From positions 690,001 to 722,000 of the forward strand of contig CP178758.1 in the NCBI GenBank assembly GCA_047651235.1: 32,000 bases of DNA, given 5' to 3'. The stretch's first letter is position 1. The number at the start of each line of letters is the position of its first letter. The position numbers were made by a program, and so were the translations under genes. A model generated the notes under the pieces. The model saw only the letters and a list, made by a program, of their open reading frames with translations. It had not been told where the DNA came from and did no database searches. Of the stretch, positions 2,572 through 22,547 are shown piece after piece. The DNA comes from Candidatus Electrothrix yaqonensis (lineage in GTDB: Bacteria; Desulfobacterota; Desulfobulbia; Desulfobulbales; Desulfobulbaceae).

Positions 2572-2634
2572 AAGACTACCTCGATAAATCCCCGTTCCAC
2601 CGTGGGCACGGTGACCGAAATCTACGACCATCTA
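2572..2634 (+). pseudogene. Relic (about 20 codons) of a uvrA-like gene
   Basis: It translates to [21 protein letters not shown] directly after an in-frame TAA. From memory this matches the conserved N-terminal UvrA segment (E. coli ...[24 protein letters not shown]...). No other UvrA sequence is nearby. Confidence 0.5.
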
Positions 2635-2659
2635 CCGGCGAGTGAGCATTCAAACCAGA

Positions 2660-5600
2660 TTACCTGAAAACATCAGCCTCATCAACAGATGGATGTCCCT
2701 CAAAAAACTCCTTAAAACACACATTGGCCCGCAGGCTCTCTTCGTTCTGAGCGATAGCAGTGAAAAAGGTCTCGCTGCCCACGACAATGAGTTTATGGCG
2801 GGCGCGGGTGATGGCAACGTTGAAGCGGTTGGGGTTGTTGAGAAATTCGCCCAGTACCTGAGCCGAGTCTGAGCAGGTAAAACCGAACAGGATCACCTCC
2901 CGTTCTGCACCCTGGATGCGTTCCACGGTATCAATTAGGGGCAGATCGTCGCTGCTGCCTAACAGTTCCGTTAAACGGCGGCTTATCCGGTTATTCTGGG
3001 CACGATGGGGCGAGATCAGGGCCAGTTGTTCCTTGTGCAGACCGTATTTGCTCTGTAGGCGATGGGCCAAGCGGGTCATGATTTCCGCCTCCACGATGGA
3101 TTCCTGGCCGCAGCCCTGATGGTCGGCACGGACTAGGACCACGGGTTGTTCTGGATCAATGATCCTATCCAGAGGATCGTTGCCGAGTCGGCCCTTGAGC
3201 GACAAGCGGGCAGCAGCATTTGCCGGGGCCGGGCGTAATTTGGAATTGTACCAGGTGCGGCTGGGAAAGGCGCAGATTTCCGCGTTCATGCGATAGGTCA
3301 GGTCCAAAAATACGCTTTGCTGCGGGTAGCGGTGCAGCATGAGAGTGAGCAGGGAGCGACGGACCTCGCTTTCCAGAGCTTCATCATTCTCATGATCCTC
3401 TTGGTGCTCAACGTGGTGAAAGTGGTTAATTGTGTCCTTCTTGATCGGCGCTGAACGGATCACCGGCGGCAACTGATGCACATCGCCGAGAAAAAGAAAG
3501 TTGCCCTTGCCGTGCACCAGACTCAGCATGGCCTGCGGCAGCAAAACCTGTGATGCCTCATCAAAAATCACCCAATCAAAGGGTTTGGCAGGCAGCTTTT
3601 TGTTTTTCTGCAAATAAGTCAAACCATAGCCGGTGGCACCGAGAATGAGGTGGGAAAAGCGCAGTACCTGGTCAGGGGCTTCCAGCAATTCCACCTGCAT
3701 TTCGTCACTGTTTTCATCAAACTCCGGCCCATCCCACCTGCCCCATTTGCAGCAGCGGCCCGGAAAGTCAGGCAAATCATGTTGGTTGACCAGTTTAATC
3801 ACCTTGCTGAGTACCTGATCAATGGCCTGATGGGTCAAGGCACTGATCGCAATGCGAAGCGGCTCATCCCTTGCCTGGGCGTGGCGGACCAGCGCAATCA
3901 AAATCCAGCCCAGTAGATTGGTCTTGCCTGTGCCGGGCGGCCCCTGAATCAGGCTCAGGGCATGGCAAAACGGCATTTGAAGCCCCTGTTCTTGCGCCGC
4001 ATTCAAGCCGGCAAGCTTGCCTTCCGTGTGCAGCCATTCCTGTACCCATTCCTGCCAATCCGAAGGCTGGGCAAAATCCCAGGCTCCGTCAAACAGATCC
4101 TGCAAAGGATGGTGGATTTTTTCCGAATAAACGCTTTGCACTACCTCAATGAGCTTGGGCGTGGTCCAATCATCAGCGTCTTCTTCCAGCGAATAGGAGA
4201 TATTTTTCTGCAAGCGGAGCGTGCTGCGTTGCCGCGAAGAAAGGGTAACTAATCCTTGGTGCGGCTCGTAGCTGTTCACAATCACCGGCATACCGCTTTG
4301 CAGGTCTTTTACTCCTTGGGGAACCAGCTTGAGAAAATCCCCTTGGCGAAATTTGGAAACTCTCGTTCCTGCCCCATCGCTCTCTTCAATTGCTTCAAAG
4401 AGATAGAGAAAGCCTCCTTCATCATCCAGACCGGTGCCGGTAAAACGGAGCGGCCCCAAGGCCCGAAACCGTTCCACCCGCTCGGCCAGAGACAGTTCCT
4501 GCACGTCTCTGATATCTTTTTCTTGCACAGCCTGTTCCGCCTCGATGAAATTTTGAAAGGCTAGGCCCCTGCTCGACCCGGCTTGCGCAGGCTCATCCGG
4601 ATTATCCCAAGTAGGGGCGACTGGCTGGTCGCCCCTACTCCAATCACTGCTTAGGTGAGAGGCGATCCATTGCTGAACTTGCCTGTCAATGTTCAGAACT
4701 GCGGCAAGGTGCTCCTTTGCTTGTAGGGGTCGACCTATGTGTCTACCCTGTGATGTATTATCGGAAAAGGGCGGACACACAGGTACCGCCCGTACAGTGT
4801 CCGGCAAAAAGTCAAAGTGGACAAGGGACGCAGGGGCTGGCAAATTCTGCTCCGTGTGCAAGCCCAAAACGCGGGCCAGATCATACAGGGTGAGCGTGGC
4901 GGAAATGGGCAGGGCAAAATGCTTGTGCAACACCTGGTCAAGATCGGTCCAGGAGGGATCAAGGCTACGACGAAAAAGATTGCGCAGCGGCTTATCCGCC
5001 ATTATTGCTGCCCAGTCATCAAGCCCTTGCCGGATACCTGCACCGAAAAAGAAGATATGCGGCCTACCTTGCTTTTCGACAGCCTCTTGCCAGAATTTGA
5101 GGAAACAGTCCGAAAAAGCACGCCAAATCTGTTGTCGTTCTGCCTTCGCCGCTTTATCCCCGACCACCCAGGTAAATATCTGCAAATCCTCAGCACCCTG
5201 ACCACGTTGCCCAACTCCCAAACCCACAGCCTTGGGCAGCATGGTCACGGGATCATTGAGCAGATGAACGAAAAAACAGGTTGCAATATGGGCTGGAAAG
5301 AGATCTGTCCGTTGCCGGGTCAGAATGATTTTATTTTCGTGCAAGGCAGTGACAGCATTGTGCAGACCTTCTCTTTGCGCCGGGCTGAAATCGGTATTGA
5401 CGATACATGTTGTAGGGGCTGGCCCCTGTGCCTGCCCGGCACATAGGGGCACGGCGCGCCGTGCCCCTACAAAACCATCGGCAAACCAGGCCGAGGCATC
5501 CTCAATATTCCGCAGATCCAAGGCCCGCATTTTCTCCAAAGCACCTTGAGAAAGCCGGGGAATGAACTGGATATCTTCTTCGTGCAAAGCTTGCTGATAA

Positions 5601-8600
5601 CAAGAGGGAAAATAGGGACAACTCAGGCAATGCGCTTGTATTTGCCACCCGGCTTGATCTGGAGGATGCGAGAGACATTGTGCAAAATTACGTAAAAGCG
5701 CTGGCAAGCTGGCCAGATAGGGCTGGAGAGCAAAGGTATGCCGTTGCGGTTTGTCATCAAGGGGGGAGCGAATCAGAAGAAACCCGCTGTCATCAACCTG
5801 AACGCCTTTTGTATCAAGCCGCTCCTGCTCCAAAAAGGTCTTGAGCAAAAACGCATAAAAGGCCACCTGCCATCTCTGATGATAACGTGGTTTGGCAACG
5901 CTTTTAATGTCGCCCACTTCCAAGATGATATGTTGCTCTCCGGCTGCATCTTCGGCTGAAACACGGATGAGATCAGGAATGCCGACCCCGTCCACATCCA
6001 CCCTATCCACATTCAAAGGTGACAACAGCGCGGGCAAGAGAAACACGCCCTGGGCCAGATAGACGTTCCCTGCCAGATCCTTTTGCCCGAAAACACGTTG
6101 CAACCAATCTCGAGTTTCCGCATAACGGGACTCCAGAGAACGTGGCATCCCGGACTGATCCTTTTCCTGGACAAGATGAAATTGTTCTTTGAATCCGGCA
6201 AGCTCAGCCATAATTTCCTGTTCAAAGGCTAGGCCCCGTGCCAAACGAAGGCTGGCATACTCGTCGTCCATCGGGCTTTGTCGGGGGGGCTGATCCTCGG
6301 GCCGGAGAAAAGAAGCGCAGAACTGACGATCACATTGGTGGTGGCGAAAATATTCACCGATCATGGTGCCGGTCAAGGGTCTGGTCTGATAGCGAACCTT
6401 CTTGTCCTTGACAAAGACCGAAGCAGCATCTCCGGCATCTTCATACCGCTCCTTTTCCAAAGCCAATAATGGTTGACTCTGTACCTCAAAAAAGGTGGGC
6501 GCCTGTTCTTCAGTCTGCTCAGGATGAAATTCAAGATTGCGCGGATCACCCTCTACGATCTCGGAGGAACTGTCTTTGTATTGCTGAAAAAAAGCAATCA
6601 GTCGCTGATCAAAGATGCAATCAACCAGTTCGTGGCGCAATATTTCCGGCGGCAAAGTCGTACAAAAGGCATTGAGCGGAAACATGGCCCGCAGCTGCTT
6701 ACAATGGCTTTTGACCCAAGCCGTGAAATCATTGCGTTGCACGGGCAGGGGCAACTTTTCAAAAGGAATCCATTGACTACAGATCAGGCCGATCTCATCG
6801 GAATCCACCTCAACATCTTCTGATTGTGCAGCAAAATATTCCTTCACGCTCCAGGCGAGTAGCATATTGCCCACCGCGCCCAGATAAGTGCGGTATTGAA
6901 AAGATCCTTGATCGGCAAGGACCACCTCAATGCCGTTATTGAGCAAGACCGCCTTTGCATCTTGGGCCAGCTGCTGGCGGATGAGTTTGCGGGTTCGGGA
7001 AAAAAGCCCGGCAGCAGCCTCATTATCAGCAGCATTTGGTGATTTGAGGACTGCCCGCATAGCCTGCGCTGTCTCCAAAAAAACGTGACAGCCCATGCCG
7101 AGCCAGAGCAATTCCTTATCATCCAGCCGCTCCTGAGTGGGTTCCGCAAAAATCCGTTTATCCGCTTTGGTACTGATCCAGAGAATACGTAAAGGCCGAC
7201 CGGCTAGTAAAACCTTGTCGCCGGGATCAAGCTGCTTGACAATGGTCTGCGGAATATCAGCCACAGGCTCGCCTGCCACATCCAGCTTGTACTCAATCTC
7301 GGTTTCCGGGAAATTGGACCAAATTTGATACTCCGTCAAGGCCTCCCAATATCGCCATCCTCCTGTATATAAGCCCTCAGTCTTGTCCTTACGTAGCCAT
7401 TGTTTCTTGATCAGCGATTGGAAGATGTTCTCAAGCCGGGTCGCCGCTTCCTCGTTGCCCGAATCAACCCCCGGATCACAAAAGAGTTCCTGCACCGATG
7501 GTAAAGAAAGGCGTTTTTTTTCATACAAACAGGAAATGACCTGCTGGCTCAACACGCTGGGAAAGTTTTTGGGCAGGGCTGCTTCCACCTGTCCCTGCCG
7601 GGCCAGACTGAGCAGGGCGAGAAAACGCAAGACCTGCTGGCCTGCCTGTTCGCCCCGGCATATTCCCCAAAAATGAATGGCCTTTTGCCGTCGATTGGCC
7701 CGACCAATACGTTGCAGAAAGGCGGCAACCGAATCCGGCGGCTCAAAGAGAATGACCGCATCCACATCCCCCACATCAATGCCCAGCTCCAGAGTCGAGG
7801 TAGCAATGCAAATTGACCTGCTCTGCTTGCGAAAACTGTGCTCCACCTTTTGGCGTTGTTTAGCGGTGAGATTGGAGTAATGCAGATGAGCCCTGCCGCG
7901 AAAGGAACCAAGCCGATTCAACAGCCCGAAAATTTTATCACAGCGTCCCCGGCTGTTGGCAAAGAGCAGAATTTTGCGATAATCCCATTCACGGTAGAGA
8001 TCATCCAGAAAACCGATCAGCTCCTGTTCATCATTTGCAAGATGCACCATCCTGGGCACGATGTCCCTACTCACCTTATCAGCAAGAAAGACGGTATCCG
8101 ACGAGCAACCCAAAAAGCGGCCCACTTCATCGGGATCGGCAAGGGTGGCGGATAAGGCAAGTCGTTGCACTCTTGAGCCAATACGCCGTTCCAGACGTTG
8201 GAGCAGATAGACCAGTTGACGGCCACGATATTGATGGATAAAGAAATGGGCCTCATCGATGATCACAATGCGCACCCGTGCGAGAAAACCGCGCAGATCC
8301 TGATTGGAACTGCCCATCATCACGTCCAGCGACTCAGGCGTGGTGAGCAGCAGAGCAGGGCGTCCACCGCCTCTTTGTTTGAGGTCACCGGTGCGAATGG
8401 CGAATCCGAGCCCCAGTCGTTCGGTGATAACCGCTTTGAAACGCCGATACAGATCAGCGGCCAGGGCTCGGGTGGGGACGATATAGAGGACGGATTTGTT
8501 GGACCCGGAACGGATGACCCGTTCCATACACGGGGCCAACACGGCTTCGGTTTTGCCGGACCCGGTAGCAGATTGAAGAATAAGATCTTTTTGCGCCAGT

Positions 8601-8689
8601 ACCGGTTCAACGGCCTGTTGCTGGATGGGATGCAGCTGCCGGAATGCGCCGTAAAAGGCGCGATAGGTATTGGGGAGGTGGTTGATCAA
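2660..8689 (-). CDS. Giant 2009-aa multidomain protein: Lhr-like DEAH (SF2) helicase + Fe-S Cas4/RecB-type PD-(D/E)xK nuclease + RNase-H-like module + Dna2/Upf1-type SF1B helicase
   Basis: It is an uninterrupted 6-kb ORF.
- SF2 core (about 7655-8647): Q-motif LHPIQQQA, motif I SATGSGKT (8550-8573), PTRALA, DEAH (IIDEAHFF, about 8249-8263), SAT, ATSTLELGIDVG and QRIGRANRR.
- Nuclease (about 5585-6365): C786/C791, D906, E924-x2-D927-I-K929, QVAFY (QxxxY) and C1021-x2-C1024-x5-C1030.
- SF1B helicase (2660 to about 4040): GPPGTGKT (3920-3943), VIFDEASQV, GDVHQLPPV, TVERIQGAEREVILF and NVAITRARHKLIVVG.
- Start codon: it must be non-ATG (TTG at 8689), because motif I precedes the first in-frame Met (residue 55). 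Confidence 0.85.
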   Translation of the reverse strand: MINHLPNTYRAFYGAFRQLHPIQQQAVEPVLAQKDLILQSATGSGKTEAVLAPCMERVIRSGSNKSVLYIVPTRALAADLYRRFKAVITERLGLGFAIRTGDLKQRGGGRPALLLTTPESLDVMMGSSNQDLRGFLARVRIVIIDEAHFFIHQYRGRQLVYLLQRLERRIGSRVQRLALSATLADPDEVGRFLGCSSDTVFLADKVSRDIVPRMVHLANDEQELIGFLDDLYREWDYRKILLFANSRGRCDKIFGLLNRLGSFRGRAHLHYSNLTAKQRQKVEHSFRKQSRSICIATSTLELGIDVGDVDAVILFEPPDSVAAFLQRIGRANRRQKAIHFWGICRGEQAGQQVLRFLALLSLARQGQVEAALPKNFPSVLSQQVISCLYEKKRLSLPSVQELFCDPGVDSGNEEAATRLENIFQSLIKKQWLRKDKTEGLYTGGWRYWEALTEYQIWSNFPETEIEYKLDVAGEPVADIPQTIVKQLDPGDKVLLAGRPLRILWISTKADKRIFAEPTQERLDDKELLWLGMGCHVFLETAQAMRAVLKSPNAADNEAAAGLFSRTRKLIRQQLAQDAKAVLLNNGIEVVLADQGSFQYRTYLGAVGNMLLAWSVKEYFAAQSEDVEVDSDEIGLICSQWIPFEKLPLPVQRNDFTAWVKSHCKQLRAMFPLNAFCTTLPPEILRHELVDCIFDQRLIAFFQQYKDSSSEIVEGDPRNLEFHPEQTEEQAPTFFEVQSQPLLALEKERYEDAGDAASVFVKDKKVRYQTRPLTGTMIGEYFRHHQCDRQFCASFLRPEDQPPRQSPMDDEYASLRLARGLAFEQEIMAELAGFKEQFHLVQEKDQSGMPRSLESRYAETRDWLQRVFGQKDLAGNVYLAQGVFLLPALLSPLNVDRVDVDGVGIPDLIRVSAEDAAGEQHIILEVGDIKSVAKPRYHQRWQVAFYAFLLKTFLEQERLDTKGVQVDDSGFLLIRSPLDDKPQRHTFALQPYLASLPALLRNFAQCLSHPPDQAGWQIQAHCLSCPYFPSCYQQALHEEDIQFIPRLSQGALEKMRALDLRNIEDASAWFADGFVGARRAVPLCAGQAQGPAPTTCIVNTDFSPAQREGLHNAVTALHENKIILTRQRTDLFPAHIATCFFVHLLNDPVTMLPKAVGLGVGQRGQGAEDLQIFTWVVGDKAAKAERQQIWRAFSDCFLKFWQEAVEKQGRPHIFFFGAGIRQGLDDWAAIMADKPLRNLFRRSLDPSWTDLDQVLHKHFALPISATLTLYDLARVLGLHTEQNLPAPASLVHFDFLPDTVRAVPVCPPFSDNTSQGRHIGRPLQAKEHLAAVLNIDRQVQQWIASHLSSDWSRGDQPVAPTWDNPDEPAQAGSSRGLAFQNFIEAEQAVQEKDIRDVQELSLAERVERFRALGPLRFTGTGLDDEGGFLYLFEAIEESDGAGTRVSKFRQGDFLKLVPQGVKDLQSGMPVIVNSYEPHQGLVTLSSRQRSTLRLQKNISYSLEEDADDWTTPKLIEVVQSVYSEKIHHPLQDLFDGAWDFAQPSDWQEWVQEWLHTEGKLAGLNAAQEQGLQMPFCHALSLIQGPPGTGKTNLLGWILIALVRHAQARDEPLRIAISALTHQAIDQVLSKVIKLVNQHDLPDFPGRCCKWGRWDGPEFDENSDEMQVELLEAPDQVLRFSHLILGATGYGLTYLQKNKKLPAKPFDWVIFDEASQVLLPQAMLSLVHGKGNFLFLGDVHQLPPVIRSAPIKKDTINHFHHVEHQEDHENDEALESEVRRSLLTLMLHRYPQQSVFLDLTYRMNAEICAFPSRTWYNSKLRPAPANAAARLSLKGRLGNDPLDRIIDPEQPVVLVRADHQGCGQESIVEAEIMTRLAHRLQSKYGLHKEQLALISPHRAQNNRISRRLTELLGSSDDLPLIDTVERIQGAEREVILFGFTCSDSAQVLGEFLNNPNRFNVAITRARHKLIVVGSETFFTAIAQNEESLRANVCFKEFFEGHPSVDEADVFR
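4610..4639. repeat. GC-rich perfect palindrome (12-bp arms, 6-nt loop) in frame inside the helicase ORF
   Basis: The sequence is AGTAGGGGCGAC-TGGCTG-GTCGCCCCTACT. It is 30 nt long, encodes SRGDQPVAPT (residues 1351-1360), and is flanked by Trp codons on both sides. Confidence 0.9.
5412..5470. repeat. Composite GC-rich palindromic element of the same family, in frame inside the helicase ORF
   Basis: Outer arms GTAGGGGC...GCCCCTAC enclose a perfect 26-bp palindrome TAGGGGCACGGCG|CGCCGTGCCCCTA (5444-5469) and the small stem GTGCC-TGCCC-GGCAC. The element encodes VGARRAVPLCAGQAQGPAPT (residues 1074-1093). Confidence 0.85.
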
Positions 8690-8867
8690 GTCAGGACGGT
8701 CTGCTGATGGATAAAATTCAATTGATTGAGCAAGCCTGTTTCACTTTTATTGAAGCAGGAGAAAACAGCTGAGGTCGGAATCAAAAATAAACGACTCATG
8801 GCCGGTTGGGATAACGATTACTTGCTGAACGTACTGACTGGTCTATAAATTAAATGCGTTTACCATG

Positions 8868-8995
8868 GAGTTCATTCGCTTTTTCTGATTCATCCTTCTT
8901 TATAAATTATCCTCTCCGAATTTATTGCCGACCGTACCGATATGATGAGAGAATTGCATTTCCTCGTTCTGTCTGTGCCAGCGGCAGGCGGCCTT
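8868..8995 (-). pseudogene. Decayed remnant of a second brnT (3' end) plus brnA (first ~13 codons)
   Basis: It aligns by eye to 9606-9735 (the intact brnT/brnA junction) at roughly 80 percent identity. A 2-nt indel breaks the brnT frame, and the brnA start is mutated from ATG to ATA. Homology stops abruptly at both ends. Confidence 0.7.
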
Positions 8996-8999
8996 CCTG

Positions 9000-9230
9000 C
9001 TACGACCTTAACAGATATTTATTGTGCTGCCGGGCAATGTCGGCATCCTCCCCCTCCGCCATTCCCACAATATCCAGCAGGGCATCCTTTTTCTGTGCAG
9101 CAGGCGCACCATGGGATATTGAAGCCGTGTCTTCTTCCTTTGAGAGCTTTGACAAAATAAATCGCATCAGTTCAAACTTGTCTGCACAGGGAAGCGCATC
9201 AATAAGCGGTATAACCTCGGCAAGTGTCAT
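9000..9230 (-). CDS. Small antitoxin-like protein with no cognate toxin gene beside it
   Basis: The 76-aa ORF starts at ATG 9230 with a GAGGAGG Shine-Dalgarno 6 nt upstream. The N-terminal pattern MTLAEVIPLIDALPCADKFELMRFILSKL and the C-terminal acidic tail (GEDADIARQHNKYL) resemble addiction-module antitoxin components. The family assignment is from memory only. Confidence 0.5.
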   Translation of the reverse strand: MTLAEVIPLIDALPCADKFELMRFILSKLSKEEDTASISHGAPAAQKKDALLDIVGMAEGEDADIARQHNKYLLRS

Positions 9231-9277
9231 GGGAGTCCTCCTCAAGCTATGGGAAAATAGGTAGATCGGAATGTGTA

Positions 9278-9306
9278 ATTATACCAAGGGATACCTGGCT
9301 CAGCAA
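9278..9306 (-). promoter_or_regulatory. Sigma70-type promoter for the 9230 ORF
   Basis: On the minus strand it reads TTGCTG (9306-9301), a 17-nt spacer, then TATAAT (9283-9278). It lies about 48 nt upstream of the ATG. Confidence 0.55.
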
Positions 9307-9312
9307 GGGAGA

Positions 9313-9373
9313 CCAAACGCAATCAGCAGGCAGGTTCCAGTAAGGTGTGAGGAAGGGGTGGAAGTTCCTCCCC
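9313..9373. repeat. 61-bp conserved block, copy 1
   Basis: The block is CCAAACGCAATCAGCAGGCAGGTTCCAGTAAGGTGTGAGGAAGGGGTGGAAGTTCCTCCCC. It is identical at 61/61 positions to 10042-10102, while the flanks have diverged. Confidence 0.9.
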
Positions 9374-9396
9374 ACGGAAGATGAACGTGCCCCCTG

Positions 9397-9642
9397 TCAC
9401 TGCTGCACCTTGGAATGCTTTACCAAGCGGGTTGATGCCGCTGCCAGTTCCAGCAGAGAGCGAAGCGCATTATTCACAGCTTTATCATTGGGAAAAGCTT
9501 GGGCAATATCGGGATCCAGAAGGACAATGTTGGATTCCTCTTTAATACGGTCCGCATATTTACCACGCACAATTTTTCCAAAATCCGATCTCTTGTATTC
9601 GGGTCGGAGTTCATCCGCTTTCTCTGATTCAGCCTTCTTCAT
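9397..9642 (-). CDS. brnA: BrnA-like antitoxin (downstream partner of BrnT)
   Basis: The 81-aa ORF overlaps the brnT 3' end by 14 nt. It contains LRPEYKRSDFGKIVRGKYA...IVLLDPDIAQAFPNDKAVNNALRSLL, a pattern typical of antitoxins encoded after DUF497 toxins. Confidence 0.6.
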   Translation of the reverse strand: MKKAESEKADELRPEYKRSDFGKIVRGKYADRIKEESNIVLLDPDIAQAFPNDKAVNNALRSLLELAAASTRLVKHSKVQQ

Positions 9643-9901
9643 AAATTATCCTCTCCGAATTTGTTGCCGGGCGTGCCGATATAATGCGAATCGCATTGCC
9701 TCTTTCTGTGTGTGCCACTGTAAGCAGGCGGCCTTTTGAGGACATGCCGAAAGTCACAAAGCGATCTTCATTTTCTGAATGGTCAGGGTCATACGCAGTC
9801 GCTGAAAAGGAATCACGCAGGGCGCTGGATGCTTCCTCGAATGTAACACCATGTTTGCGCCGGTTTATTCTTGCCTTGTTCGGATCCCACTCAAAATGCA
9901 T
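9629..9901 (-). CDS. brnT: BrnT toxin (DUF497 family)
   Basis: The sequence MHFEWDPNKARINRRKHGVTFEEA...DPDHSENEDRF...GRLLTVAHTERGNAIRIISARPA matches the DUF497/BrnT signature. Confidence 0.8.
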   Translation of the reverse strand: MHFEWDPNKARINRRKHGVTFEEASSALRDSFSATAYDPDHSENEDRFVTFGMSSKGRLLTVAHTERGNAIRIISARPATNSERIIYEEG

Positions 9902-9944
9902 ATCTACCCGACTCCGTCATTTTCCTCTGCCTGTTCATACAATC

Positions 9945-10173: not shown

Positions 10174-11178
10174 TACTTCTACTTTGGCACTCACAAAGGC
10201 TGTGGTAATAATTTGCAATTCCGTTGTTTCTCATATGCGAAATCAATCGAAGCTTGCCTCTTTTCATGCCGTTGACAAAGCTGTCTTATAACTTCATCTT
10301 CGTTTACATCTCGACGTGGAAAATTGACTTGAGTAATGTTGTTATATCAGCGCAACTCAATAACGGGACACCGACTTGATGGTATAATCGTTGCTCGACC
10401 ATAAACAACATGGCCATCATGACCATAGTCATATGATGATGCCAAGCCAGCCATCCCCGAGCCTTAGCCTTAAGACAACGTTCCTTGTCATCCGTCCAGC
10501 TTTTCGGTAAATACAGCCGATAGTCGATTGGCGTGGAAAAACGGCCATATCCCAAAGTCGCGAACACTGCTACCTGACAGTTGTCGGTTTTACCAAGCTG
10601 CCCGCACCATTGACGAGAAACCCCGACAGACATCTTCCCCTTTTTGGGCATCCCGGATTCATCAATAAAAAGAGCGCTATCTTCCTTTCCTCCAAAAATG
10701 TTATCCGCATCTTTAGCTACGTGGTTGTTTACAGGACGCCAATCCCAGTTCGATTCGGAAAGAAAATACTGGAGGGGCTCATATTTAACGCCCGGAACCT
10801 TTTCCTCCATACGTTCCATGTTTTTTTGTCAGACTGGAATAAACCTTTCAAGTATTGGAATGCTTTATCTGACAAAATTACCGTATGTCTCTTAAAAAAA
10901 TGATGATATCTTTCGTGAAAAGACGTAAGTTGCCGGGCGATGCCGGTCAACTCAAAGAATTTGTCATGGGGACTTCTTTTTTCGGGGCTGGGAGCGTTCA
11001 TAAAAAGAATAAAGTTATAATCAGGGCGATTGACGGGTATTTTTTTGATAGCTGTTATCAGGTGCTAGCTTGATCAAAAAGCGATAAAATCTTCCTAATG
11101 AAAGATACAACTTTATCCGGATATTGCAAGAAGTTTTTACAAATAGATCAAAAGGTTATGGTTGACAAAGTAGAAGTA
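10174..11178 (-). mobile_element. Decayed IS701-like insertion sequence (about 1 kb)
   Basis: Terminal inverted repeats TACTTCTACTTTG (10174-10186) and CAAAGTAGAAGTA (11166-11178) enclose a broken transposase gene. Confidence 0.65.
10304..11001 (-). pseudogene. IS701-family DDE transposase, frameshifted and internally deleted
   Basis: The N-terminal piece (10729-11001: ...KAFQYLKGLFQSDKK) and the next piece (10304-10819: ...LQYFLSESNWDW...SRQWCGQLGKTDNCQVAVF...) are in different frames, shifting at a T-run near 10820. The sequence jumps from the early catalytic region (ERCLKAKA) straight to the C-terminal RGWLAWHHHMTMVMMAMLF, so most of the DDE domain is missing. Confidence 0.7.
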
Positions 11179-11187
11179 GCCTTCGCC

Positions 11188-11280
11188 CCTTGAGGATCAT
11201 CGTGCGTCACAGGGGGACATCCCTTCGCCCCCAGTGACGGAACATGCGCCCTTTGGGGAGAACGTCTCGGAGCAGGGGGA
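11188..11280. repeat. Continuation of the 42-bp-period repeat on the far side of the IS (units R3-R4 and a degenerate tail)
   Basis: R3 is CCTTGAGGATCATCGTGCGTCACAGGGGGA followed by the linker CATCCCTTCGCC. R4 (11230-11260) has the central GTGACG... core in inverted orientation. The tail ends in AGCAGGGGGA. Confidence 0.6.
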
Positions 11281-11459
11281 TGAATTTGTTTTCCGTGCTC
11301 CGATATCCTATTCAGTGGCCTGTTGGGGTTGACCGGCAAAACGACCAGCATGGGATCGGAGGCAACTTGACCATGTCCCATCTTTTATGATTCAATGAGA
11401 TATGAATCTACAGAGTAATTATACAACAAATGGAGGATGATCATGAACCGAATTCAATG

Positions 11460-12030
11460 TACTATGGACTGAAAGTCGCTATTTCGGCTAAAGCCGATTA
11501 AAACCGCTGACTCAAGTCAGTGTGTAACGACTGAAAGTCGTTATTCTATTTTAAAATCGTCATTATTATGATTTGGGTCATTTCTGTGATTTTCAATATA
11601 ATTCCGTATCATTTCATCAGTAACGTGTCCGGAACTCAAAGCAACGCAGCCAATACCCCAAAAATGTTTTCCCCAGTATCTTCTGGACAGTTGAGGAAAT
11701 TCTTCCTGAATCTTTTTTGAAGAGCGGCCCTTGAAAAATCGCACCATTTCACTCACGGATATCTTGGGAGGATACGACACATAGATATGGACATGGTCCT
11801 GACTGATATTTCCTTTGATGATCTGAATATCTTTCGAATCACATGTTTGGCGTATTATCTCTCTGATTCGAATACTTATATCCCTGCTTAACACGTTGTA
11901 ACGATATTTGGTTATCCAAATCAAGTGAACTTTCAGATCATGTACGCTGTGCGATGATTTTCTATAAGGCCTCATAAATGAGAATCTACTAAAAGTCTTG
12001 GACTGAAGTCCATAGTTTTAACTGACGATT
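11460..12030 (-). mobile_element. IS200/IS605-family element (tnpA only); ends approximate
   Basis: A Y1 transposase gene is flanked by subterminal hairpins that share a GACT-N2-3-AGTC core, at 11467-11477, 11484-11497, 11507-11520, 11526-11542 and 12000-12013. Confidence 0.7.
11541..11975 (-). CDS. tnpA: IS200/IS605-family Y1 (HUH) transposase TnpA
   Basis: The 144-aa product has HLIWITKYRY, an HUH motif (DHVHIYV), and C-terminal MIRNYIENH carrying the catalytic Tyr. Confidence 0.9.
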   Translation of the reverse strand: MRPYRKSSHSVHDLKVHLIWITKYRYNVLSRDISIRIREIIRQTCDSKDIQIIKGNISQDHVHIYVSYPPKISVSEMVRFFKGRSSKKIQEEFPQLSRRYWGKHFWGIGCVALSSGHVTDEMIRNYIENHRNDPNHNNDDFKIE

Positions 12031-12138
12031 AGTTCTACTTTGGCGATCATAAACATAACCAGCTTATTTTTATTAAGTATTTAAAAACCCCTGTTTTTAG
12101 TATTATTAATATTATTAAATAGTTAATGGTATGGTCAC

Positions 12139-13179
12139 CAATAGACCTCCTGCAAAACTTGGTGATTTGACAGAAACGGCGGATGCTGATATTTTTTCGG
12201 TCACTTTTTCGATTATCAACCCCGGAGGTCTGAAAATCATGCTCACATTCGAAAAACTCTCCCGCCGCCCTGAAACATTCCGCCGTCTGACCGGTGTCGA
12301 TATTGATCTTTTCAACGGAATGACGGAAAAGATCCGCCCTTTATGGGAAGAGCGGAGAGATAATTTTGAAAAGGGCGGGAGAAAGCACAACTTGGAAGGA
12401 GCTGAAAACCACCTTCTCGCCATGCTCCTGCGAAGTCTTCGCTTATCTATTACCGTTGTTACGTGACATATGAGTTCCTCAGTTTTTTCTTCGATTCCGA
12501 TGAGACGACGGTGATGCGCGCAGTGAAACGGATGGAAAAAATCGCGGTACGGGTGATTCATATTGAAAAAAAGCGTGAAATCACACGGGAAGATGCGGAA
12601 TACCTGATAATCGATGCGACGGAGCAGCCGGTTCAGCGCCTGAAGAAAGGACAGAAGAAGTATTACAGCGGAAAGAAGGGAAAACACACGCTCGGAACGC
12701 AGTTTACCGCCGGTCCCGACGGACGGATTTTTTCGGTTTCGGCGTCGTATCCCGGAAGTGTTCATGATTTCAGGATATATAAGGAACAGAAGGGGCGGGA
12801 GCGTTTTCACGGTATTCCGAAGAAGGCCGACAGCGGATATCAGGGAATCGCGGCATATGACCGGCGCGCCGAAATTCCCTTTAAAAAGCCCCGGAACGGT
12901 GAACTGACCGCCGAACAGAAGGCATATAATCTTGATTTATCGAAAAAACGTATCAAAGTTGAGCATGTCATAAGAGAGGTGAAGGTATTTAAAATCATGT
13001 CGGAAACATACCGGAACAGGCTTAAAGGCCATAATATAAAGAAAAATATCATATCCGGCATAGTGAATATGAAGGTTGCGGCACGGAAAATGAAGAAAGC
13101 TGCCTGAAGCGGAAAATTTTGAAAAAGGGAAAAACCTCACCGCCTGAGAAGAACAGGCAGTTCTGCAGGAGGTCTTGTG
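12139..13179 (+). mobile_element. IS5-family (Harbinger/PIF-like, DDE_Tnp_4) insertion sequence, 1041 bp
   Basis: The inverted repeats are CAATAGACCTCCTGCAAAACTT (12139-12160) and the reverse complement of 13158-13179 (CACAAGACCTCCTGCAGAACTG), matching at 18/22 by eye. Confidence 0.75.
12239..13107 (+). pseudogene. DDE_Tnp_4-type transposase split by a frameshift near 12430-12445
   Basis: ORF A starts at ATG 12239, with GGAGG 10 nt upstream, and reads MLTFEKLSRRPETFRRLTGV...HLLAMLL. The continuation ...IYYRCYVTYEFLSFFFDSDETTVMR... IIDATEQPVQR... YSGKKGKHT... SVHDF... KVEHVIREVK is in another frame. No slippery heptamer is visible at the shift. Confidence 0.7.
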
Positions 13180-18900: not shown

Positions 18901-19950
18901 ATGAGTGTGTCCATTGATGCTGTTTCTGCTCCCCCGCCTGCCGAGCAGAGCGGAACCCAGGAGAATGTTTCAGTTCAGGCCATCAACAAAGCTGTGCAGG
19001 AAAGCTCGGCTTGGGTTGGTCTGCTGAAAAGTGAGGTAGGGAAAAATATAGTCGGTCAGGAGGGGCTGGTGGAACGGCTGCTTATCGGCCTGCTCACCGG
19101 CGGGCATATCCTGCTGGAAGGCCTGCCCGGTCTGGCCAAGACCCTGGCCGTGAAGACCCTGGCTGCAGCGGTGTCCACGGAATTTCAGCGCATCCAGTTC
19201 ACCCCGGACATGCTGCCAGCAGATATCATGGGCACGGAGATCTACAATCCCAAAGATACCTCTTTTGAAGTTAAGCAGGGGCCGATTTTTTCCTCCATCA
19301 TCCTGGCGGATGAAATCAACCGGGCACCTTCCAAGGTCCAGTCTGCCCTATTGGAAGCTATGCAGGAAAAGCAGGTGACTATCGGTGAGTCCACCTTTCT
19401 CCTGCCCAAGCTATTTTTGGTCCTGGCGACCCAGAACCCCATTGAACAGGAAGGCACCTATCCTCTGCCCGAAGCCCAGATAGACCGCTTTATGCTCAAG
19501 GTAAAGGTAGACTACCCGACCCGCGAGCAGGAACGGCAGATTCTGGACATGGTCGAGCACACCGACTCCAGCGTCAGCGTGCCGCAGATTATTGCGCCGG
19601 AAGACATCCTCGCCGCCCGCAGGGTGGTGGACTCCATCTATCTGGACGACCGGATCAAGGACTATATTGTCGAGTTGGTTTATGCCACCCGCGACCCGGC
19701 AGGCATCAGCGCGGAGCTGAAAGATTACATCGAGACCGGGGCTTCGCCCAGAGCGACCATCAATCTGAAGGTGGCGGCTCGCGCCTTGGCTTATCTCAAC
19801 GGTCGCGGTTATGTGATCCCGGATGACATCAAGAACTGCGCTCTGGATGTGATGTGCCACCGGCTGCGGATCAGCTATGAGGCCGAGGCTGAAGGGATTA
19901 CCAGCGAGGATATTATCCGCAAATTGCTGGATACGGTACCGGTGCCGTAA
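18901..19950 (+). CDS. moxR: MoxR-family AAA+ ATPase
   Basis: It has IVGQEGLVERLLIGLLTGGHILLEGLPGLAKT (Walker A), ILADEINRA (Walker B) and LATQNPIEQEGTYPLPEAQIDRF. A strong AAGGAG Shine-Dalgarno precedes the start. Confidence 0.9.
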   Translation: MSVSIDAVSAPPPAEQSGTQENVSVQAINKAVQESSAWVGLLKSEVGKNIVGQEGLVERLLIGLLTGGHILLEGLPGLAKTLAVKTLAAAVSTEFQRIQFTPDMLPADIMGTEIYNPKDTSFEVKQGPIFSSIILADEINRAPSKVQSALLEAMQEKQVTIGESTFLLPKLFLVLATQNPIEQEGTYPLPEAQIDRFMLKVKVDYPTREQERQILDMVEHTDSSVSVPQIIAPEDILAARRVVDSIYLDDRIKDYIVELVYATRDPAGISAELKDYIETGASPRATINLKVAARALAYLNGRGYVIPDDIKNCALDVMCHRLRISYEAEAEGITSEDIIRKLLDTVPVP

Positions 19951-19951
19951 G

Positions 19952-20866
19952 ATGGAAAAAACAATCACCAAGGAAATCCTGAAAAAGGTCCGCCGTATCG
20001 AGGTGCGCACCCGGCGTATGGTGGATGACACCCTGGCCGGGAGTTACCATTCGGTGTTCAAGGGCCAGGGCATGAATTTTGACGAGGTGCGGGAATACGT
20101 GCCCGGCGACGAAATCCGCAGCATTGACTGGAACGTCACGGCCCGGACCGGGGTTCCCCATGTCAAGAAATTCGCTGAAGAGCGGGAGCTGACCATCATG
20201 CTGATGATCGATATCAGCGGCTCCGGCGGATTCGGCTCCGGGGAGCAGTCCAAACGGGAGATGATGGCCGAGCTGGGTTCAGTGCTGGCCTTTTCCGCAG
20301 TACGCAACAACGACAAGGTCGGGCTAGTTCTGTTTTCCGATTTTGTCGAGCTGTTCGTTCCGCCGGACAAGGGCCGGAAGCATATCCTCCGGGTTATTCG
20401 AGAAATTCTTTTTTTTCAGCCCCAAGGCAAGGGCACCAAAATCAATGAGGCCCTGGACTTTGTCAACCGGGTGGCCAAAAGCAAATGCGTGACCTTTCTG
20501 CTTTCGGATTTCTGTCTGCCCGGTGATTTTGACGATGCCCTGGAGGCCATCCGGCCCAAACTGCGGATCACCGGTCGGCGGCATGACCTGATTGCCGTGT
20601 CGGTCACGGATACTCGGGAGCGGGAGCTGCCAAATGTGGGCGAGATCACCTTGGAGGATGCAGAGACCGGCGAACAGATCGTCCTCAATACTGCTGATCC
20701 CTGGACACGACAGGCCTATGCCAACTTGGCTGGTGACCGGGCAGAGCGTTTTGCCCACACCGTGCGCAGTGCCGGGATTGATCTGCTTCGGCTCTCCACA
20801 GATACGCCGTATCTCGCTCCTCTGATGGGGTTTTTCCGCTCCCGAAAAAGGAGGCTGGCCCGATGA
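19952..20866 (+). CDS. DUF58-domain protein (MoxR partner)
   Basis: The chosen start is ATG 19952, 1 nt after the moxR stop, rather than the track's upstream ATG at 19877, which would overlap moxR by 74 nt. It has FKGQGMNFDEVREYVPGDEIRSIDWNVTARTG, the DUF58 signature. Confidence 0.8.
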   Translation: MEKTITKEILKKVRRIEVRTRRMVDDTLAGSYHSVFKGQGMNFDEVREYVPGDEIRSIDWNVTARTGVPHVKKFAEERELTIMLMIDISGSGGFGSGEQSKREMMAELGSVLAFSAVRNNDKVGLVLFSDFVELFVPPDKGRKHILRVIREILFFQPQGKGTKINEALDFVNRVAKSKCVTFLLSDFCLPGDFDDALEAIRPKLRITGRRHDLIAVSVTDTRERELPNVGEITLEDAETGEQIVLNTADPWTRQAYANLAGDRAERFAHTVRSAGIDLLRLSTDTPYLAPLMGFFRSRKRRLAR

Positions 20867-21558
20867 AGCGTTTGTTTTTCGGAATAAGGGGTGTAGGGGC
20901 GAAAGATTTTTTGTCCTTGCTGCTTATTCTGCTGAGTATTTTTTCCGGCATTGGATTCGCCGATCAGGTGACCGTTCCTCTTACTGATCCGGCGGCGCAG
21001 AACCAGTCCGCTGATCAGCAGACGCAACCACCCAAACCACCTGCTATCGGGCCGGACCAGCTTTATGATATCAAGGAGCCAATTCTTATCCCTGAGCATA
21101 ACCGTATTCTGTGGATAGTCGCAGCGACGGTGCTGGCAACTCTGCTGCTTATCGTTCTGATCCTCTTTCTCCGCAAACGGAGCAAAAAGCAGAAGGCCGT
21201 CCTGGCCCATGAAACTGCTCTGCACGAATTGAAGCGGGCCGGGCTGCTGATTGAAGAGGAAAATATTGCTGCCTTTGTCAACCTAATCGACCAGACTCTG
21301 CGCCGGTATATTGAGCAGCGTTTCGGCATCTTTGCCCGCAGGCAGACCACCCGCGAGTTTATCAGCGGTTTGGCTGAAGACCGGGAAGATGTGCCGGTGG
21401 ACCTGAAAAAAAATTCCGACAACCTGAAAGCCTGGCTCCAGCACTGCGATATGGTCAAATTTGCCAAAGCTGGGCTGAGCCGGGAAACCATGATGGATAT
21501 GGCTGCAAATCTGCGTGTGTTTATTGAAGCAACTAAGGTGGAGGCTGAAGAAAAATAA
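20863..21558 (+). CDS. DUF4381-like membrane protein of the Bat/MoxR operon
   Basis: An ATGA overlap links it to the upstream gene. It has an N-terminal signal-like segment, a Pro/Gln-rich linker and one TM helix (ILWIVAATVLATLLLIVLILFL). The position between the DUF58 and VWA genes is typical. The family call is from memory. Confidence 0.55.
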   Translation: MKRLFFGIRGVGAKDFLSLLLILLSIFSGIGFADQVTVPLTDPAAQNQSADQQTQPPKPPAIGPDQLYDIKEPILIPEHNRILWIVAATVLATLLLIVLILFLRKRSKKQKAVLAHETALHELKRAGLLIEEENIAAFVNLIDQTLRRYIEQRFGIFARRQTTREFISGLAEDREDVPVDLKKNSDNLKAWLQHCDMVKFAKAGLSRETMMDMAANLRVFIEATKVEAEEK

Positions 21559-22547
21559 TGGACAGCCTTGGTTTTGCCTATCCCCAATTGCTCTGGTTCC
21601 TGCTTCTTCTTCCCGTTCTGGGATTTCTCCGGGGCAGACGCGGCCCGGCACCTGCCCTGGTATTCTCCTCTGTTGCAGTGGCCAGAGCGATTTCTTCGGA
21701 AAAAATGACCCGGCCGGGCAGACTGCTGGCCTGGCTGCGCTTGGCTGCCCTCGGTCTGATTATCCTGGCAATGGCCCGTCCCCAATGGGGCAGCACCAGC
21801 ACCGAGGTCGAGGCGTCAGGCATTGATATTCTGCTGGCCGTGGATGTATCAGGCTCCATGCAGGCCATGGACTTTACGCTGAAAGGCAGGGCTGTAGATC
21901 GTCTGACAGTAGTCAAAGCGGTGGTGAAAAAATTTATTGAAGATCGGCCCAATGACCGAATCGGCTTGGTGGCCTTTGCCGGACGACCCTACATGGTCTG
22001 CCCATTGACCCTGGATCATGACTGGCTCTTCCAGCGGCTGGAATCCCTGCGCACCGGGATGATTGAAGACGGTACCGCGATCGGGTCGGCCATTGTGGCT
22101 GGGGTCAACCGGCTGCGAGATCAGGAGGCCAAGTCCCGGATCATGATCCTGCTCACTGACGGGGTCAATAATGCGGGCAAGGCTGCGCCGCTCACTGCTG
22201 CCGAAGCGGCAGAGACCATGAAGATCAAGGTCTACACCATCGGGGCGGGAAAACAGGGGATTGCCCGAATGCCGGGTGTGGATATATTTGGCCGACCCAA
22301 TATGGCTGAGGTGGATATTGACGAGGATACCTTGGGCAAGATTGCCGAGATGACCGGAGCCAAGTATTTCCGGGCCACTGACACCCGTTCGCTGGAAAAA
22401 ATTTACGAGGAGATTAATGCGATGGAAGCCACGACCAGGAAGATCAAGCATTTTTCTCAGTATAGGGAGCTGTTTTCCTGGCTGGTTACTGCGGCCGTGC
22501 TGCTGCTGGGAGTGGAATTGGTTGTTTCGCGGAGGCGGTTGCCGTAG
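21558..22547 (+). CDS. VWA-domain membrane protein (BatA type)
   Basis: It has the N-terminal FAYPQLLWFLLLLPVL, the MIDAS motif DILLAVDVSGSM, ILLTDGVNN and a C-terminal TM helix. A TAATG overlap links it to the upstream gene. Confidence 0.8.
   Translation: MDSLGFAYPQLLWFLLLLPVLGFLRGRRGPAPALVFSSVAVARAISSEKMTRPGRLLAWLRLAALGLIILAMARPQWGSTSTEVEASGIDILLAVDVSGSMQAMDFTLKGRAVDRLTVVKAVVKKFIEDRPNDRIGLVAFAGRPYMVCPLTLDHDWLFQRLESLRTGMIEDGTAIGSAIVAGVNRLRDQEAKSRIMILLTDGVNNAGKAAPLTAAEAAETMKIKVYTIGAGKQGIARMPGVDIFGRPNMAEVDIDEDTLGKIAEMTGAKYFRATDTRSLEKIYEEINAMEATTRKIKHFSQYRELFSWLVTAAVLLLGVELVVSRRRLP

Follow-up and report, generated by a model that had tools for sequence, protein, structure and literature searches.

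The window analysed here, 32,000 nucleotides (nt) of the Candidatus Electrothrix yaqonensis genome (contig CP178758.1, positions 690,001 to 722,000), carries a gene for a 2009-amino-acid (aa) protein that combines four parts in one chain: a Lhr-like superfamily 2 (SF2) helicase, a four-cysteine nuclease of the Cas4/Dna2 type, an RNase-H-like domain and a Dna2-type superfamily 1B (SF1B) helicase. This helicase-nuclease is the large subunit, called gene D below, of a conserved four-gene system (A-B-C-D) that was undescribed before. The genes form an operon in other lineages; in Electrothrix the operon has been broken up, and every domain of gene D is under purifying selection. We consider it probable (about 0.6) that gene D is the effector of a system related to Shango and to the BrxD-BrxHI pair, a set of two motors of opposite polarity plus a nuclease that likely destroys phage or plasmid DNA. 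The architecture itself had been seen in a preliminary description of this DNA, and its SF2, nuclease and SF1B parts were borne out by Pfam, PADLOC, fold and sequence matches; the linkage to a conserved A-B-C-D operon is new here.

The open reading frame (ORF) begins with TTG, ends with TAA and has no internal stop, and the longest ORF overlapping it in another frame encodes 209 aa. Its product was 100% identical to the 'DEAD/DEAH box helicase [Candidatus Electrothrix sp. YB6]' of a 3.74-Mb record; YB6, the source of the window, is a cable bacterium. The independent Logan assembly of run SRR31704081 yielded the identical 2009-aa product, and the flanks of the gene in the Logan contig were 100% identical to the window over 2659 bases downstream and 653 bases upstream. 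More than 100 full-length colinear homologues were found in several phyla. Because the independent assembly and these homologues agreed with the window, an assembly chimera was rejected; the single uninterrupted ORF of the preliminary description stood, and all the motifs cited there sit at the residues given. When gene D was compared with three Electrothrix orthologues, the ratio of non-synonymous to synonymous substitution rates (dN/dS) was approximately 0.18 overall and 0.10-0.27 for the individual domains, showing that purifying selection acts on every domain within Electrothrix.

No publication describing the fusion or the A-B-C-D system was found, including under the themes PLuB/DUF2791, TM0106/PF13482 and Lhr/Cas4/Dna2/BrxD, and a preprint on modularity networks did not cover the system. 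No full-length fusion family was among the best 25 of 101 PADLOC v2.0 matches, all 25 of which were partial. In the literature found and among these PADLOC matches, the exact architecture matched no described system, as the preliminary description had supposed. The full fusion was also absent from 72,556 plasmid and 50,697 phage records. A scan of a genome collection with the full-length alignment gave no prevalence across species, since the automatically chosen patterns (GPPGTGKT among them) were too general and only about 5 of 80 loci were true full-length relatives.

Domains of the gene D product

Pfam matched the whole protein near its two ends, with DEAD and Helicase_C at residues 21-334 and AAA_11 and AAA_12 at residues 1566-1973, and gave no match between them. 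Conservation was scored in an alignment of 30 full-length homologues with 42-86% identity. In the N-terminal SF2 core, K46 of motif I (GSGKT) was at least 90% conserved, D145 and E146 of motif II (DEAH, 145-148) and S180-A-T182 of motif III were invariant, and motif VI (QRIGRANRR, 326-334) was present. Together with the Pfam matches, these motifs confirmed the complete DEAH helicase core reported earlier. Residues 16-696 covered positions 22-682 of 698 in the PADLOC BrxHI profile (PDLC02503; 3e-89), and residues 16-585 covered positions 22-616 of 720 in the SngC profile (1.4e-75), with BrxHI scoring higher. The protein had been said to match no named defence helicase; this held for full-length families among the best 25 PADLOC matches, but the BrxHI and SngC matches had been overlooked. 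The nearest solved relatives of the SF2 part were M. smegmatis Lhr-Core (5V9X, 6e-33) and full-length Lhr (7LHL). The Lhr-Core layout, an SF2 DEAH motor with a winged helix and subsequent domains, was present, and NCBIfam Lhr-like families matched below their cut-offs. The BrxHI domain layout applied to residues 386-700 was taken from PMC12839542, and SngC, BrxHI, DruE and DpdJ possibly form a defence-specific SF2 clade (PMC12278908).

At the other end of the protein, the SF1B motifs G1583-PPGTGK1589-T and D1710-EAS (1710-1713) were invariant, and GDVHQLPP (1735-1742) and TRAR (1961-1964, with T1961-R1962) were present. These motifs and the AAA_11 and AAA_12 matches agreed with the complete C-terminal SF1B helicase described before. 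The NCBIfam IGHMBP2 family matched with 4.6e-45. When the C-terminal 610 residues were compared with PDB sequences, Dna2 (5EAN/5EAW) was the best match (2e-23), followed by Upf1, Sen1 and IGHMBP2. Foldseek matched the barrel that precedes the core to IGHMBP2 (4B3G) and Upf1 with a probability of 1.00 over roughly 160-180 columns.

Four cysteines of the central region (C786, C1021, C1024 and C1030) were invariant in the homologues and form the pattern C...C-x2-C-x5-C. The catalytic residues D906, D927-I-K929 and Q941 were at least 90% conserved, and the QxxxY motif is Q941-xxx-Y945. The four-cysteine nuclease pattern and its catalytic motifs were therefore retained from the preliminary description, except for the alternative first cysteine, C791, which was not conserved; C786 is the candidate first cluster ligand. 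The cysteine pattern suggests that the nuclease binds an iron-sulfur (Fe-S) cluster. In Pfam searches with nuclease segments of homologues, 10 of 13 matched Cas_Cas4 and 9 of 13 matched PDDEXK_1, with best E-values of about 1e-6; the window sequence alone (residues 740-1050) gave a borderline PDDEXK_1 match (2e-4). A profile of the nuclease segment returned only chance matches among PDB sequences (flavivirus NS5, E 0.2), so the nuclease call relies on what the homologues matched in Pfam and on fold similarity. For residues 700-1560, an AlphaFold2 model was built from an 18-sequence alignment (mean predicted local distance difference test score, pLDDT, 77; predicted template modelling score 0.76). 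The best Foldseek match of this model in the PDB was Dna2 (5EAN, E 4e-5), and the nuclease part also matched MGME1, RecE, AddB and lambda exonuclease. Both lines of evidence supported a nuclease fold in the center of the protein. Cas4 proper is associated with CRISPR-cas adaptation genes, which was not the case here: no CRISPR-cas family was detected among the Pfam-scanned ORFs of the window or the called genes of the homologue loci, save for a weak Cas3-like_C_2 match of gene D itself.

The RNase-H-like domain, the least certain of the four assignments, was the least conserved part of the protein, with 24-43% identity vs 42-72% for the motors. The modelled topology of residues 1100-1350 was beta-beta-beta-alpha-beta-alpha, and Foldseek matches to RNase H and PIWI folds were weak (probability 0.2-0.3). 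No Pfam match (including PF13482) and no PDB sequence match were obtained with residues 1095-1365 and 8 homologues, and TIGR03491 was not among the 25 NCBIfam matches listed for the window protein. In a protein of 1148 aa from Erythrobacter sp. AP23 (locus L052), PF13482 RNase_H_2 (6e-21) is flanked by an N-terminal region on one side and an SF1B helicase on the other. When the central profile of the window protein was aligned to this Erythrobacter protein with hhalign (probability 83%, E 9e-6), the aligned span ran from the nuclease, with C-x2-C-x5-C in register, through a HhH-like linker to the first strand of the RNase H domain. On this strand, the catalytic DFEGDP of the Erythrobacter protein corresponds to HLLNDP in the window, placing H1123 and L1125 at the DxE positions, and the first of these positions varied among homologues (H, Y, R, Q or L). 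The domain probably has a PF13482-related fold that has lost catalysis, because the DxE acidic motif is absent at the aligned strand; in DEDD/RNase-H-like exonucleases, the DxE of the first strand is conserved. The alignment to the Erythrobacter protein and the model thus gave indirect support to the fold named in the preliminary description, but the catalytic acidic motif was missing.

The C-terminal two thirds had been likened to Dna2, and Dna2 was indeed the best PDB match both by fold and by sequence. Both proteins have an Fe-S-type PD-(D/E)xK nuclease, a beta-barrel and an SF1B helicase in one chain. However, the window protein differs in the RNase-H-like domain inserted between nuclease and barrel, in the second (SF2) motor ahead of them, and in its bacterial origin and operon linkage to AAA+ ATPases, and outside the helicase core the likeness is at the fold level only. 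Orthology to Dna2 is made less likely by the additional RNase-H-like domain and by the fusion to an SF2 motor.

The A-B-C-D operon, its relatives and its break-up in Electrothrix

Nine non-Electrothrix loci (L002-L008, L085 and L086) had sufficient upstream sequence, and in every one of them D was directly preceded by genes A, B and C on its own strand. The nine belong to Desulfobacterota and other metagenomic lineages and show 35-57% identity in D. Spacing within the operon was tight, and C and D overlapped by 4 nt in L086. The protein, described before as a single polypeptide, is not a self-contained system; elsewhere it is encoded by the fourth gene of an operon together with a 280-aa protein and two BrxD/SngB-like ATPases. 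This conserved operon also led us to reject a stand-alone single-gene defence protein of the Nhi, Hna or DdmD type.

Gene B (about 430 aa) matched PF10923 BrxC_BrxD (1e-61), PADLOC BrxD (3.5e-49) and SngB (1.2e-34, profile positions 5-409 of 439). Gene C (about 400-425 aa), which was 23% identical to gene B, matched the same three profiles (PF10923 4e-23, BrxD 5.7e-20, SngB 6.8e-12). The Walker A and B motifs were intact in both, as GDGKT and LMDE in gene B and GQGKS and LFDE in gene C. Judged by these matches, genes B and C are two diverged ATPases of the BrxD/SngB (ORC/Cdc6-like AAA+) type. With the helicase part of D, three of the four components are, by their profiles, homologous to parts of Shango and BREX (bacteriophage exclusion) type 2.

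Gene A (about 280 aa) had no Pfam or PADLOC match and was 63-78% identical across the family, including a Latescibacteria homologue. Its AlphaFold2 model (pLDDT 86) showed a long helical hairpin with alpha/beta parts and no significant fold match in the PDB. A search of 1.84 billion representatives with the gene A profile returned 348 relatives of similar length, only a handful of which were close, and ten distant relatives had no informative Pfam domain and no TerB. A hidden TerB protein was rejected, as gene A matched neither TerB nor SngA in addition to the negatives above. The SngA of Erythrobacter locus L052 served as a positive control and gave TerB_N at 7e-63 and SngA at 1.6e-98.

The same Erythrobacter locus contains a canonical Shango operon, in which SngA with TerB domains scored 330 bits, SngB 595 bits and SngC 897 bits. 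It is followed by an overlapping gene on the same strand for the Cas4-like nuclease, RNase_H_2 and SF1B protein described above. The two halves of the window protein are thus adjacent genes in Erythrobacter, where SngC precedes the nuclease-SF1B gene, and this adjacency links the halves independently of the fusion. The cDHS1 locus of P. aeruginosa PA14 (PMC10250203) may hold a counterpart of this nuclease-SF1B gene. Just upstream of the Erythrobacter Shango operon (L052:4161-6004) are genes for a Cap17-like ATP nucleosidase (PADLOC CBASS 'Effector', 670 bits) and for a DEDDh exonuclease, and downstream of it is one for a TrwC relaxase. The whole stretch resembles a defence island carried by a conjugative element. 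Plasmid pDESTI.01 of Desulfomonile tiedjei DSM 6799 encodes a short form of the system, made up of a relative of gene A (E 2e-16), a pair of BrxD-like genes and a BrxHI-like helicase of 701 aa that lacks the nuclease-SF1B extension; a metagenome-assembled genome (MAG) of Cellvibrionaceae (L011) looks similar.

The C-terminal two thirds probably belong to a class already present in the NCBI annotation, a point missing from the preliminary description. Its members, labelled 'TM0106 family RecB-like putative nuclease', are about 1100-1150 aa long, are fused to a DNA2/NAM7 helicase and stand alone in 69 plasmid records. Their Cas4-like four-cysteine nuclease, HhH-like linker, RNase_H_2 and SF1B helicase follow the order of residues 740-2009 of the window protein, in which the RNase_H_2 counterpart is a probable one, and tblastn gave about 30% identity to the stand-alone versions in L010, L021, L030 and L046. 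However, TM0106-type proteins stand alone and keep the DxE motif (DFEGDP in L052), whereas the window protein has lost the motif and is fused to a BrxHI-like helicase. Four stand-alone loci were inspected: one had a McrBC-like pair with WYL and HEPN genes, one lay near WYL genes, one was accompanied by SIR2 and imuA-imuB-dnaE2, and one lay behind a large helicase-related gene.

Shango consists of a TerB protein, an ATPase and a helicase and protects P. aeruginosa against several phages by a mechanism that is not known; protection was shown only for the P. aeruginosa and E. coli systems (PMC10250203). The four-gene system shares with Shango a BrxD-like AAA+ ATPase and a Lhr-like SF2 helicase in one operon, and gene B matched the SngB profile, though the BrxD profile scored higher. 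It differs in having no TerB protein (gene A is not an SngA) and two ATPase paralogues instead of one. SngC is about 720 aa long vs 2009 aa for gene D, the extra residues (about 1300) being the nuclease, the RNase-H-like domain and the SF1B motor. BrxD and BrxHI are a tightly linked dyad specific to BREX type 2, and BrxD, an ORC/Cdc6-type AAA+ protein, has been proposed to load or activate BrxHI (PMC12839542). This linked pair is adjacent in L002-L008, L085 and L086, and the BrxD and BrxHI profiles fit slightly better than those of SngB and SngC. However, the core BREX genes were absent: no PglX, PglZ, BrxC/PglY or PglW was found within 8-10 kb in L002, L003, L004, L085, L086 and L088 or among the Pfam-scanned ORFs of the window. 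BrxHI also has no nuclease or second motor. The four-gene system is best placed with Shango and BrxD-BrxHI, as a form whose Dna2-like effector is fused.

No gene A, B or C was present in the 32-kb window, and the only remnant found was a 62-nt relic of the end of gene C. Intact gene A (locus tag ACL93V_13250) and intact gene B (XOF32972.1) were located on the same 3.74-Mb YB6 record as D. The YB6 gene C was recovered on a Logan contig of run SRR31704081 (L092:4467-5711) and, along its entire length, shared 91% identity with the E. gigas gene. In blastn, the relic was 82% identical to the end of the L091 gene C, which is intact. The relic ends in a TGA stop that overlaps the TTG with which gene D starts; its counterpart, the end of the real YB6 gene C, is LVNQLDFVQQGVVLG* (asterisk, stop). 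The same relic precedes D in L091 (L091:9930-10000) and in E. communis (L087:9930-10000). About 60 nt from the end of gene C are present twice in three Electrothrix-type loci, once at the end of intact gene C and once as the relic abutting the helicase start. When the operon was split, the insertion therefore either duplicated this translational-coupling junction or left it in place.

The arrangement differed among Electrothrix genomes. In L091, whose D is 79% identical to that of the window, a 7.2-kb insert separates A-B-C from D. It (2848-9907) forms a small islet of defence and toxin-antitoxin genes with BrnT/BrnA, an NTase/HEPN pair, an Eco57I-type N6 methyltransferase, a GmrSD-like gene, a RelA/SpoT-domain gene and PDDEXK_2. 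E. gigas has A-B-C without D nearby, and E. communis has a 52-aa gene C relic and then BrnT/BrnA at 9.3 kb upstream of D. In Electrothrix sp. GW3-4, D is preceded by a PhD/PIN module, and the flanks of D were different in each Electrothrix genome inspected. Inserts at the C/D junction also occur outside Electrothrix (two small ORFs of 270 and 152 aa in L085:6680-7955 and about 1.6 kb in L007:2078-3666), which suggests that the junction is a recurrent insertion site.

In the window, a BrnT-like module is inserted between former gene C and gene D. BrnT directly follows gene C in L091; in the window, insertion sequence (IS) fragments lie beyond BrnT. This IS cluster (10304..13107) is likely the breakpoint that separates A-B-C from D in YB6, and an IS-associated rearrangement probably carried A-B-C away. 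The surroundings of gene D had been read as resembling a defence island. The toxin-antitoxin (TA) and IS genes are instead later insertions, and this neighbourhood is secondary; the C/D junction of the ancestral operon became an insertion hotspot.

Proposed role and competing explanations

Experiments or genomics have established both Shango and the BrxD-BrxHI dyad of BREX type 2 as defence modules; their mechanism is not known, and they have no obvious nuclease. Here, the same kind of helicase is physically fused to a Dna2/Cas4-type nuclease and to a motor of opposite polarity, a classic sign of functional partnership, and the fusion gives a concrete, testable model for the role of SngC/BrxHI-type helicases. 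Lhr helicases move 3'-5', and Dna2/Upf1-like SF1B helicases move 5'-3'. In the proposed mechanism, the A/B/C ATPase complex would sense or mark a DNA substrate and then load or license D. The latter would work as a single-chain bipolar machine, its Lhr-type motor running 3'-to-5' on one strand and its Dna2-type motor 5'-to-3' on the other. Both motors would move D in one direction on a duplex end or fork, in the manner of RecB and RecD within RecBCD, and the Fe-S nuclease would meanwhile cut the threaded single strand. The likeliest biological role would be the destruction of invading phage or plasmid DNA. In YB6, gene D is intact and probably still works with unlinked A and B, and gene C may carry a nonsense mutation.

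RecBCD and AddAB likewise combine two motors of opposite polarity with a nuclease, and the AddB nuclease is of the same four-cysteine Fe-S PD-(D/E)xK type. However, the window protein is a single polypeptide, its 3'-5' motor is SF2 (Lhr-like) instead of SF1A, and it has no identifiable Chi-scanning domain; the analogy to the whole complex is one of mechanism, not of homology. If the proposal is true, gene D encodes a rare two-motor, RecBCD-like end-processing enzyme built from SF2 and SF1B in one polypeptide. The cable bacteria provide a natural experiment, with an operon split by TA and IS insertions whose parts are still under selection, as measured by dN/dS for D. A more far-reaching version, in which a widespread machine of ORC/Cdc6-like ATPases and a novel-fold protein loads a RecBCD-like single-chain helicase-nuclease onto foreign DNA, is put forward tentatively, and we hold it with less than even confidence. 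It would reveal the missing effector logic of Shango and BrxD-BrxHI: SngC/BrxHI helicases would then be delivery or unwinding modules for a Dna2-like nuclease that is fused (as here), adjacent (as in Erythrobacter) or absent.

A role in defence is likely, and we favour it because of the profile affinity to defence components, the signs of horizontal spread across phyla, the plasmid-borne short form and the defence and TA genes at the junction. Several observations weigh against it. The defence role is deduced from sequence and genome context, the cooperation of the two motors on opposite strands from family polarities only, and the system is neither Shango nor BREX in the strict sense, since it has no TerB protein and no methyltransferase or PglZ nearby. 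The conservation of genes A and B is unusual for an immune system: the 63-78% identity of gene A holds across orders and even phyla, and gene B was 81% identical between Electrothrix and a MAG whose D was only 57% identical. The system was found in every Electrothrix species examined, which looks more like maintenance, and most loci outside Electrothrix were flanked by ordinary metabolic genes, not by defence genes. In YB6, the partner genes are unlinked from D, and gene C on the Logan contig has a single in-frame TAA at codon 195 (RPR*FPW vs RPREFPW in relatives), with A and B intact there; the TAA could have arisen by recent nonsense mutation, could be specific to a strain variant or could stem from an error of assembly.

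Some of these observations would also fit a housekeeping enzyme for DNA repair, a RecBCD/AddAB-like protein for end resection or fork processing that is loaded by the AAA+ partners and serves the cell's own genome. We regard this explanation as unlikely, though it is the strongest of the competing ones. Genes A, B and C are strongly conserved and kept in all Electrothrix genomes examined even after unlinking, all domains of D are under purifying selection, and the nearest solved relatives, Lhr and Dna2, are repair or replication enzymes. One stand-alone TM0106-type homologue on a Rhizobium plasmid adjoins imuA-imuB-dnaE2 and dinB, and a HhH-GPD glycosylase gene neighbours the system in L002 and L003. 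However, no conserved synteny with repair genes was seen, and the helicase and the ATPases matched defence profiles best (BrxHI, SngC, BrxD and SngB). Identities of 45-47% (D) and 65% (A) between phyla imply horizontal transfer and a patchy, accessory distribution. The short form in D. tiedjei is plasmid-borne, and the operon junction attracts TA and defence genes.

Two further explanations were weighed. An enzyme for RNA:DNA hybrids or R-loops of invader or host, using the Lhr-type and Upf1-like motors and the RNase-H-like domain, appears improbable. Lhr unwinds, and prefers, RNA:DNA hybrids, the SF1B core also resembles the RNA helicases Upf1, Sen1 and IGHMBP2, and the RNase-H-like fold is retained throughout the family. 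However, that domain has no DxE motif and shows the weakest conservation in the protein, Dna2, the nearest relative of the SF1B part both by sequence and by fold, is a DNA enzyme, and four-cysteine nucleases of the Cas4/AddB/Dna2 type are DNA nucleases. It is very improbable that gene D is a decaying, non-functional orphan in this genome, cut from its operon and promoter by IS and TA insertions. Such decay would be consistent with the absence of A, B and C from the window, the reduction of the former translational coupling with gene C to a 62-nt relic, the TTG start codon, the in-frame TAA of gene C in the same sequencing run and the E. communis genome, which keeps just a 52-aa gene C relic near its D. 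By contrast, the 2009 codons contain no stop or frameshift, all catalytic motifs are intact, and intact A and B genes are present in YB6. The dN/dS of 0.18 came from three orthologues that all have the split arrangement, so selection on gene D has continued after the split. Our preferred interpretation of gene D remains that of the effector in a system related to Shango and BrxD-BrxHI.

Features of the window and neighbouring genes

Gene D had been described as alone on its strand, but two further ORFs are encoded upstream on that strand: the BrnT-like ORF and a small one that overlaps the 3' end of the BrnT-like ORF. The three IS elements reported nearby were confirmed as IS fragments by Pfam matches. 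The features are listed in Table 1.

Table 1. Positions of gene D, its domains and the adjacent features in the window
Feature	Position	Strand	Evidence
Complete gene D, helicase-nuclease-helicase, 2009 aa	2660..8689	-	ORF, homologues, independent assembly, dN/dS
SF2 DEAH core, residues 1-385	7535..8689	-	Pfam DEAD 1.2e-36, Helicase_C 4e-19
Lhr/BrxHI accessory domains (winged helix, barrel, C-terminal domain), residues 386-700	6590..7534	-	BrxHI profile PDLC02503
PD-(D/E)xK nuclease of the Cas4/AddB/Dna2 kind, residues 740-1040	5570..6472	-	Cysteine pattern, catalytic motifs, Pfam of homologues, Foldseek
RNase-H-like (PF13482-type) domain (probable), residues 1100-1350	4640..5392	-	Model topology, weak Foldseek matches, hhalign to L052
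Beta-barrel and stalk before the SF1B core (Upf1/IGHMBP2 domain-1B-like), residues 1400-1555	4025..4492	-	Foldseek, modelled secondary structure
SF1B (Upf1/Dna2-like) core, residues 1560-2009	2660..4012	-	Pfam AAA_11/AAA_12, NCBIfam, PDB matches
Gene C relic (3' end; the 62 nt just before the D start)	8686..8750	-	blastn, alignment, translation
81-aa ORF overlapping the BrnT-like ORF, presumed antitoxin	9397-9642	-	ORF overlap
BrnT-like toxin ORF, 90 aa	9629..9901	-	tblastn, 50% over 90 aa to the BrnT after gene C in L091 and L087
IS fragment, DDE_5	10304-10819	-	Pfam
IS fragment, IS200-type Y1 transposase	11541-11975	-	Pfam
IS fragment, DDE_Tnp_4	12463-13107	+	Pfam

Downstream of gene D, a short peptide, RSTVGTVTEIYDHL, is encoded at 2590-2640 (+ strand, frame 3) in an otherwise non-coding spacer. 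It resembles a conserved segment of UvrA, in line with the preliminary description; no database match was obtained for it. The adjacent 109-aa ORF (2223-2552) had no Pfam or PDB match. Farther downstream are two tetrapyrrole (corrin) methylase genes and a methyltransferase fragment (551-2070 and 54-554). This cobalamin-biosynthesis cluster has a GC content of about 60%, vs about 52% for the helicase gene. At 18901-22547, genes for a MoxR-type AAA_3 ATPase, DUF58, DUF4381 and VWA/BatA proteins form a Bat-like aerotolerance operon that is unrelated to gene D.

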